The position numbers and the translations under genes were made by a program. Below are positions 32,635 through 32,796 of a DNA stretch of 37,023 bases, one piece after another; position 1 is the stretch's first letter, and each line of letters begins with the position of its first letter. The stretch lies in the IMG/VR virus record IMGVR_UViG_2778261166_000007; one strand, given 5' to 3'. The notes beneath the pieces were generated by a model. The model was not told where the DNA came from and ran no database searches. It saw only the letters and a program-made list of their open reading frames with translations. The DNA comes from a virus. Lineage: Duplodnaviria; Heunggongvirae; Uroviricota; Caudoviricetes.

Positions 32635-32656
32635 TTGACGTCCATAATATTATGGA
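32635..32656. promoter_or_regulatory. TTGACG -35-like hexamer abutting a perfect 16-bp palindrome TCCATAATATTATGGA (candidate operator)
   Basis: Palindrome at 32641-32656 is its own reverse complement; lies in a 165-bp AT-rich intergenic region upstream of the 32797 gene. Confidence 0.5.
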
Positions 32657-32796
32657 TGAACTGTTGCCAATTGCGCTAATTTTAACAAATTAATACTGGT
32701 TAACGCATTTTTTGAACCATCTGTACACAGTAGTTGTCTACACTTTACCTTAAAGGTAAACTCTGCGCTCCACTGATGTTCACTATGGGAGGGGAT

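Follow-up and report, generated by a model that had tools for sequence, protein, structure and literature searches.

The locus raises the question of how two overlapping accessory genes, located between the baseplate hub gene and the spike gene of a prophage, are controlled. Upstream of both genes the hexamer TTGACG (32635–32640) directly precedes a perfect 16-bp palindrome, TCCATAATATTATGGA (32641–32656); in this region the window, i.e. the entire stretch of 37,023 nucleotides that we analysed, reads ...GGGCGATGATTTTTGACGTCCATAATATTATGGATGAACTG... These sequence facts had been given correctly in a preliminary description, which saw in the palindrome a typical operator of a dimeric repressor and in TTGACG an adjacent −35-like hexamer. 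From the sequence comparisons described below, we think it reasonably probable that the palindrome is not a promoter-proximal operator, and that control of the genes resides in a promoter candidate farther downstream, TTGTCT-17-TAAACT, with an embedded inverted repeat (32744–32760), within a moron of an SEN34-like prophage with 434 immunity. The highlighted palindrome matters little and is probably no control element.

The window represents a lambdoid prophage of Escherichia coli and is 100% identical to strain MEI1A-0323 across the cassette region. Its gene set comprises a 434-type immunity region with an HTH-S24 repressor and a Cro-like ORF, as well as CII, O, P and Q (13876–14364). Five exact ACAA-N6-TTGT operators were found at 7427–7493 and 8635–8670. 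The contractile-tail baseplate module is akin to that of Salmonella phage SEN34. Here, the hub gene (31223–32284) is followed by a backbone ORF of 114 aa (32287–32631, plus strand; phrog_3443), which is conserved, has no assigned function and shows by eye a hydrophobic, signal-peptide-like N-terminus. The 3' end of this ORF is the boundary where homology with other prophages begins or ends. The cargo between the hub gene and 114-aa ORF on the left and the spike gene (33587–34339) on the right differs among related prophages: SEN34 carries a hypothetical gene, COL60J a DUF4282 gene, STEFF_1 (L027) a reverse-oriented ORF, STEC1587 a hypothetical gene together with a YafO toxin gene, and E2348/69 two hypothetical genes. 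At the hub-spike junction, SEN34-like prophages exchange cargo that includes toxin-antitoxin and other accessory genes.

In our prophage the cargo consists of a non-coding gap of 165 nt, an ORF of 79 aa, an overlapping DUF2335 gene and a terminator-like hairpin. The GC content is 0.42–0.45 over approximately 32400–33600, versus 0.53–0.59 in the flanking tail genes. Of 5426 E. coli genomes, 16 carry the cassette, all of them with the same upstream DNA. The hairpin (33545–33570, plus strand) was recognised at the pattern level as an intrinsic terminator; its stem (33545–33564) has eight pairs, five of them G-C, and is followed by TTTTTTG. A similar stem stands ahead of the spike gene both in SEN34 and in the prophage STEFF_1, which carry other cargo, and the terminator seems to be part of a conserved right border common to different cargoes. 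The mobility of the cassette is directly observed, as are its sequence features and their pattern of conservation. Because of the low GC content, the variable cargo at this site, the presence in few genomes and the terminator behind the genes, the two-gene cassette is, on sequence grounds, to be regarded as a mobile accessory unit with the anatomy of a phage moron.

In lambdoid phages such as HK97 and HK022, accessory genes found as insertions between late genes are called morons; bor and lom of lambda are further examples. What the cassette has in common with them is a set of one or two genes, equipped with a promoter-like site and a terminator of their own, between two late structural genes, a GC content below that of the flanks and occurrence in only some close relatives. 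In addition, the PHROGs category for the DUF2335 family is 'moron, auxiliary metabolic gene and host takeover'. In contrast to the known examples, the cargo here is an uncharacterised pair, including a small gene that is not annotated by PGAP, and the terminator apparently belongs to the right border shared among cargoes.

The gap (32632–32796) extends from the stop codon of the 114-aa ORF (32629–32631) to the ATG at 32797. It was described as the only long AT-rich intergenic region of the tail module; it does have only 37% GC, but low GC is typical of the entire cassette and not of the gap alone. The view that a perfect 16-bp palindrome is unlikely by chance does not hold for the window as a whole, since first-order Markov simulations yielded a mean of 0.62 such palindromes per 37 kb and at least one in 45% of the simulated sequences. 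Within the gap, which was chosen post hoc, an 8+8 palindrome occurred in shuffled sequences with a probability of 0.004. Two 8-arm repeats with a spacer of 0 or 1 in the 165 nt, as found here, have a probability of 3 × 10⁻⁵ in the same type of shuffles, and therefore at least one of them is probably functional. These statistics are silent on which one it is; conservation points to the repeat at 32744–32760 rather than to the 16-bp palindrome. A search of the prophage for further copies of the palindrome, which the preliminary description had suggested, gave no other match in the 37-kb window even when up to three mismatches were allowed.

TTGACG matches TTGACA at five of six positions, but no acceptable −10 hexamer was found at a distance of 15–19 bp, neither by a consensus promoter scan nor with a scoring matrix. 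The hexamers 16–18 bp behind it are TGAACT, GAACTG and AACTGT, none with A at position 2. The best score linked to TTGACG is at most about 7.2 bits, which corresponds to approximately rank 200 in the window, and the scan with curated consensus sequences did not list the site. We also considered the repressor of the prophage itself as the binding protein. Its immunity is of the 434 type, and ACAA-N6-TTGT sites were found only in the early region. They are absent from 32600–32800 and from the tail region, and neither palindrome of the gap resembles them; the palindrome is thus not accounted for by the repressor of the prophage. An intrinsic terminator was rejected likewise: the AT-rich stem (−9 kcal/mol) is followed by GAACUGUUGCC without a U tract, and the terminator scan did not list it. 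Nor does the palindrome belong to a known RNA family, as judged from Rfam matches above threshold.

Homologous copies with 98–100% identity were available from 16 E. coli genomes, 11 IMG/VR contigs and four metagenome contigs. The palindrome is retained in the 11 IMG/VR loci, in three of the four metagenome contigs and in the four E. coli copies examined, exactly in the window's own strain and with at least the inner 14 bp in the other three. At least the inner 14 bp are kept in all near-identical copies; in FDAARGOS_943 and contig L022 a T to C exchange at 32641 breaks the outer pair. Since these copies are 98–100% identical, retention of the palindrome is uninformative. Copies of the regulatory region with greater divergence were sought in a phage collection, which gave no match, and a scan of genome contigs for the small protein gave four distant loci only. 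Consequently, the comparison depends on a Logan contig, L003, the sole intermediate homologue for testing the 16-bp palindrome.

L003 carries the cassette at the same hub-spike position, with 81% identity of the DUF2335 protein and 73% identity of the small protein to those of the window. TTGACG is replaced by TTGATG. The left half of the palindrome is mutated to TTTATAAT and the right half is deleted: the contig reads TTGATG-TTTATAATATT, after which 46/47 nt are missing. The missing segment corresponds to 46 nt at 32650–32695, plus a 1-nt indel just downstream. As read from the sequence, it is flanked in the window by TAATA direct repeats (32645–32649 and 32691–32695), which suggests a simple deletion. 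Both ORFs are intact in L003, with a pN/pS of approximately 0.48 for the part of the small ORF outside the overlap. According to the preliminary description, absence or poor conservation of the palindrome in homologous cassettes would speak against an operator; we found it lost in L003, and its outer pair broken in FDAARGOS_943 and L022. Taken together with the missing −10 hexamer, the single copy and the non-434 type, this argues against the palindrome as an operator with TTGACG as its −35 element. We regard it as a real but dispensable, lineage-specific element at the 5' edge of the cassette, which may have no function.

The position at the edge could also point to a recombination or junction site of the cargo hotspot. 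Homology with SEN34 stops at about 32625; in other E. coli and IMG/VR copies the upstream ORF is a different one, and homology starts within its 3' end. Because the breakpoints fall into the 3' end of the upstream ORF and the contexts differ, the palindrome moves with the cassette and is not the junction itself. We rejected a junction function, since the breakpoints are scattered in the upstream ORF with none at the palindrome, and a palindrome of this sort is missing from the left edge of all five other cargo types.

The likely control region of the cassette lies 80–120 bp downstream of the 16-bp palindrome. Here we found the best sigma-70 candidate, TTGTCT-17-TAAACT on the plus strand (32734–32762), with TTGTCT at 32734–32739 and TAAACT at 32757–32762; both hexamers are unchanged in L003. 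It scored 11.6 bits and ranked third on the plus strand with a crude scoring matrix. The scan with curated consensus sequences did not list this candidate, which has 8 of 12 matches while the tool needs 9. The two higher plus-strand sites are TTGACA-17-GAAAAT at 8628, over the OR operators, and TTGACA-17-AACACT at 14371, just past Q. Presumably, these are the positions of 434 PR and of the late promoter, respectively, and the two sites thus serve as positive controls for the promoter scan. Transcription from the candidate is inferred to start near 32769. An alternative −10-like hexamer at 32739–32744 (plus strand) reads TACACT in the window, TATACT in many near-identical copies and TATAAT in L003; no −35 hexamer was found for it at 15–19 bp.

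The inverted repeat TTACC-N5-GGTAA, mentioned in the preliminary description as a minor feature, exists, but its full extent is a perfect 8-1-8 repeat, TTTACCTT-A-AAGGTAAA (32744–32760), which we propose as the operator. It fills the spacer of the promoter candidate and overlaps the −10 hexamer. An operator in the spacer that overlaps the −10 element is the classical position for repression. The repeat is unchanged in all relatives, and from 32744 to 32796 only one of 53 positions differs between the window and L003. The window contains no second site of the repeat motif, neither exact nor with a single mismatch when both arms are kept, and looser matches occur at the rate expected by chance. 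Downstream of the repeat, the Shine-Dalgarno sequence GGGAGGGG (32787–32794, plus strand) precedes the ATG of the small gene at 32797, in agreement with the strong ribosome-binding site noted earlier. The 'second short palindrome' CTGTACACAG (32721–32730), by contrast, is no true palindrome but has the form CTGT-N2-ACAG; it is part of the block TCTGTACACAG (32720–32730, plus strand), of which TCTGTACA is also found in contigs L091 and L092 and the related TCTGGAC in L086 and L019. The proposal that the two downstream genes are regulated separately and possibly conditionally is supported by the low GC content, the patchy presence, the promoter candidate, the conserved repeat and the terminator.

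A small ORF of 64–79 aa always stands before or overlaps the DUF2335 gene, in Citrobacter, Scandinavium, Rahnella, Providencia, Proteus and several metagenomic contigs. Inverted repeats were sought in the 150 nt upstream of this ORF, and distances were measured from the repeat centre to the ATG. The window has TTACC-TTAAA-GGTAA at 44.5 nt. L086 and L019 have TTACC-GATAT-GGTAA at 37–38 nt, L091 and L092 have TTACC-CTAAA-GGTAA at 47.5 nt, and L090 has TAACC-CGTTG-GGTTA at 55.5 nt, with a symmetric change in both arms. TTACC-N5-GGTAA or TAACC-N5-GGTTA thus occurs 37–56 nt upstream of the small gene in three of six other lineages. In shuffled sequences the motif has a chance of 3–4 × 10⁻⁴ per lineage, which by hand arithmetic gives approximately 10⁻⁹ for three of six jointly and, for the original TTACC/GGTAA form alone (two of six lineages), approximately 4 × 10⁻⁷; the upstream regions of L086 and L091 are partly homologous, and hence the lineages are not fully independent.

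Different palindromes are found in three of seven lineages. Citrobacter has another strong palindrome, GTCAACAT-G-ATGTTGAC, over its −35 hexamer, and L089 has TTGCCCATATATGGGCAA, each at the equivalent place. The best promoter candidate of Citrobacter and Scandinavium, TTGACC-18-TAGACT or TACACT, ends 33 nt before the ATG of the small gene, compared with 35 nt in the window. In L086 the same layout is repeated upstream of a neighbouring Bro-N gene, where TTGTGT-17-TAAGTT carries TTACCTTTTTGG in its spacer; the corresponding sequence in L019 is TTACCAATTTGGTAA. The second site before the Bro-N gene of L086 could indicate a regulator that acts in trans on at least two targets. The conserved promoter-embedded repeat offers a handle for finding the regulator and the role of the gene pair across several enterobacterial lineages.

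In view of these results, what could the 16-bp palindrome do, if anything? It might be a distal or auxiliary site for a dimeric host or phage regulator, approximately 120 bp upstream of the transcription start, where it would modulate transcription, for example by cooperative binding to or looping with the proximal site. The operator of the preliminary description would thereby become an upstream site. The low probabilities for the 8+8 symmetry (0.004) and for two 8-arm repeats in the gap (3 × 10⁻⁵) are in line with such a site, and the palindrome is kept in the 11 IMG/VR loci, four E. coli copies and three of four metagenome contigs despite differing upstream contexts. However, retention at 98–100% identity says little, two copies have lost the outermost pair, and in L003 the palindrome is gone while the genes are intact, although this deletion could have taken a real but non-essential auxiliary site. 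Moreover, the window has no second copy, its half-site has no relation to the proximal repeat, the palindrome is unlike the 434 operators, the other lineages of the gene pair have no counterpart, and the literature search found no paper that contains the sequence. We therefore rate an auxiliary site as unlikely.

Within the long late transcript the palindrome might act as an RNA hairpin, i.e. as a 3' stabiliser or processing site. It forms an 8-bp stem of −9 kcal/mol (z = −3.0) that starts 10 nt past the TGA (32629–32631) of the 114-aa ORF. Nevertheless, we consider this function very improbable: the stem is AT-rich and weak, lacks a U tract, fits no Rfam family above threshold and is not kept in L003 or SEN34, both of which have the upstream ORF. 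On the minus strand the palindrome provides the −10 hexamer TATTAT of a possible promoter, TTGGCA-15-TATTAT, with the −35 element from 32670, from which an RNA antisense to the 114-aa ORF and to the hub gene would arise. This combination reached 10.45 bits on the minus strand with the scoring matrix, yet AT-rich DNA is rich in promoter-like matches, and several similar scores occur within the coding DNA of the cassette. A spacer of 15 nt is unfavourable, neither a conserved minus-strand ORF nor an RNA is located downstream, and L003 has lost the −35 element and half of the −10 hexamer. There is hardly any likelihood for such an antisense promoter.

For the repeat at 32744–32760, in turn, the question is which protein could bind it. 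CI and Cro of the prophage were rejected because the operator type differs: the operators of 434 CI and Cro are likewise dimer-binding palindromes over promoters, but the palindromes of the gap lack ACAA-N6-TTGT. A possible lead comes from the antitoxin MqsA, whose operator is given in PMC4894380 as 5'-AACCT-(N)3-AGGTT-3'. The repeat contains ACCT-TAA-AGGT (32747–32757), with equal core and spacing as in the operator quoted there, and is located in the promoter candidate, just as MqsA sites are located in promoters. On the other hand, 32746–32758 reads TACCT-TAA-AGGTA with T instead of A as the outer base, and so does not match the quoted AACCT-N3-AGGTT exactly. The other lineages keep TWACC/GGTWA and not the inner T/A (ACCG..TGGT, ACCC..AGGT and ACCC..GGGT). 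For ACCT-N3-AGGT 0.25 chance occurrences are expected per window. The similarity to MqsA sites is thus to be taken as a lead only.

At the same hub-spike site, STEC1587 carries the YafO cassette, an autoregulated toxin-antitoxin cargo of type II. Like ours, it consists of two genes whose ORFs overlap or adjoin, and a perfect palindrome of short length, GTCGTTTAAAACGAC, is located directly ahead of the ribosome-binding site of the first gene. In contrast, neither product of our cassette matches a PADLOC defence model or a toxin or antitoxin family in Pfam, PHROGs or NCBIfam, and a fusion protein from Xenorhabdus, in which the N-terminal motif of the small protein is joined to the membrane protein, is more consistent with a membrane protein in two parts than with an antitoxin that acts as a repressor.

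For the cassette we propose the following mechanism, in which promoter activity, protein binding and repression are all inferred from the DNA. The repeat at 32744–32760 would be a member of the motif family T(T/A)ACC-N5-GGT(A/T)A, placed inside the putative promoter. A dimeric DNA-binding protein on this repeat would block access of RNA polymerase to the −10 element and the spacer. Upon release of the protein, a leader of approximately 28 nt with the strong Shine-Dalgarno sequence would drive expression of the small gene, and the overlapping DUF2335 gene would probably be translated by coupling. Transcripts would stop at the terminator at 33545–33564. During lytic growth, Q-antiterminated late transcription would presumably read through the entire cassette, as is to be expected from established lambdoid biology and the presence of the Q gene. 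The cassette agrees with the textbook view of morons and would be a further example of a moron with a promoter-embedded operator.

A bolder version, to which we assign a low probability, would make T(T/A)ACC-N5-GGT(A/T)A the operator of a widespread, undescribed prophage module that consists of a protein of approximately 64–79 aa and a DUF2335 protein. This module would be run either by its own product, as a membrane-associated autoregulator, or by an MqsA-like antitoxin of the host, with the 16-bp palindrome as a second site restricted to this lineage. If MqsA-like control were true, expression of prophage cargo would be tied to stress signalling of the host.

The small gene (32797–33036, plus strand; 79 aa, phrog_26284) is missed by the NCBI annotation pipeline PGAP, although it is a constant, conserved partner of the uncharacterised DUF2335 family. 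Its product has no match in Pfam or NCBIfam, and its sequence matches in the PDB are non-significant. A homology search with the small protein remained empty, since this ORF is seldom predicted in genome annotations. The AlphaFold model, computed from the single sequence, is helical with low confidence (pLDDT 62). The N-terminal motif RYLxxAGSVxDIMPxTDY is also the N-terminus of single-chain DUF2335 proteins in Xenorhabdus, and this fusion speaks in favour of the small protein associating physically with the membrane protein instead of acting as a free repressor. A DNA-binding autorepressor found no support for the same reason, and also because the protein belongs to no recognisable DNA-binding family.

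The DUF2335 gene (32957–33529, plus strand) shares 80 nt with the small gene in the +1 frame and codes for a membrane protein of 190 aa (PF10097; phrog_3996, 'moron... membrane protein'). This protein has no match in PADLOC and no sequence or fold match in the PDB. Its model is all-helical with a C-terminal helical hairpin, and the matches in BFVD are unnamed phage proteins only. The 'DUF2335 phospholipase' of papers on the T6SS appears to be a different family.

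In SEN34-like prophages, a cargo-exchange site separates the hub/114-aa ORF from the spike gene (window 32284-33587; loci L001 and L026-L029). Besides DUF2335, the cargoes found at this position comprise DUF4282, a toxin pair with YafO, an ORF in reverse orientation and further hypothetical genes. A comparison of three cassette types only, namely those of this window, SEN34 and the STEFF_1 prophage, revealed a similar terminator stem and TTTGCTTTCTGGAGCCTAC as common elements of the right border.

In the window, the DUF2335 gene is preceded by a 79-aa ORF (32797-33036) with a strong Shine-Dalgarno sequence, which matches phrog_26284 (E = 2e-12) and has no PGAP annotation in the identical E. 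coli genome. All lineages examined have a homologous ORF of 64-79 aa that either lies ahead of DUF2335 or overlaps it, and in the Xenorhabdus proteins P0028-P0035 the N-terminal motif of the small ORF is fused to DUF2335. In L090 the pair lies within a siphovirus-like tail module, with the tail chaperone genes on one side and the tape-measure gene on the other; in Citrobacter koseri it adjoins gtrA/gtrB-like genes. In Proteus mirabilis (L084/L085, 254-2028) the pair directly follows a gene for a CI-like HTH-S24 repressor. Lambda rexAB occupies the same position, immediately downstream of the CI repressor gene. The location of the Proteus pair hints at exclusion or conversion genes that are expressed in the lysogen. 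In one E. coli genome (GCA_054376255.1; L017, 3001-3572) the DUF2335 gene is split into ORFs of 113 and 95 aa, probably by a frameshift, which suggests that the cassette decays occasionally.

At the equivalent position upstream of the gene pair, other lineages contain different strong palindromes. These are TTGCCCATATATGGGCAA (9+9) in L089 (~605-622) and the inverted repeat GTCAACAT-G-ATGTTGAC in Citrobacter (L005, ~3761-3777), which overlaps a TTGACC -35 hexamer. Their differences suggest putative lineage-specific operators. In Rahnella-type prophages, a second TTACC-N5-GGTAA site (L086 155-185; L019 340-354) is present upstream of a Bro-N-domain gene beside the DUF2335 pair. The L086 site lies inside a promoter-like TTGTGT-17-TAAGTT unit with the same layout as the promoter candidate at window 32734-32762.

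Directly 5' of the 16-bp palindrome (32641-32656), a perfect 10-nt inverted repeat, AAAATCATCG / CGATGATTTT (32587-32596 / 32626-32635), flanks the final codons of the 114-aa ORF and folds as a long hairpin (z = -2.4). This repeat is not kept in L003, the 81%-identical cassette. Several high-scoring promoter-like matches (11.2-11.4 bits) also occur within the coding DNA of the cassette (32895-32924, 33114-33140 and 33390-33417), where they probably reflect its AT-richness; they are a warning not to read too much into any single promoter match in this region.

The immunity region (7427-7493 and 8612-8670) is of the phage 434 type, with five exact ACAA-N6-TTGT operators versus 0.72 expected by chance. 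A PR-like site, TTGACA-17-GAAAAT, is located at 8628, and a late-promoter-like site, TTGACA-17-AACACT, directly follows the Q gene at 14371. The left end of the window is formed by a lacY-type permease gene (1-1248; LacY_symp, E = 1e-193), and the early region of the prophage lies a few kb downstream of it.
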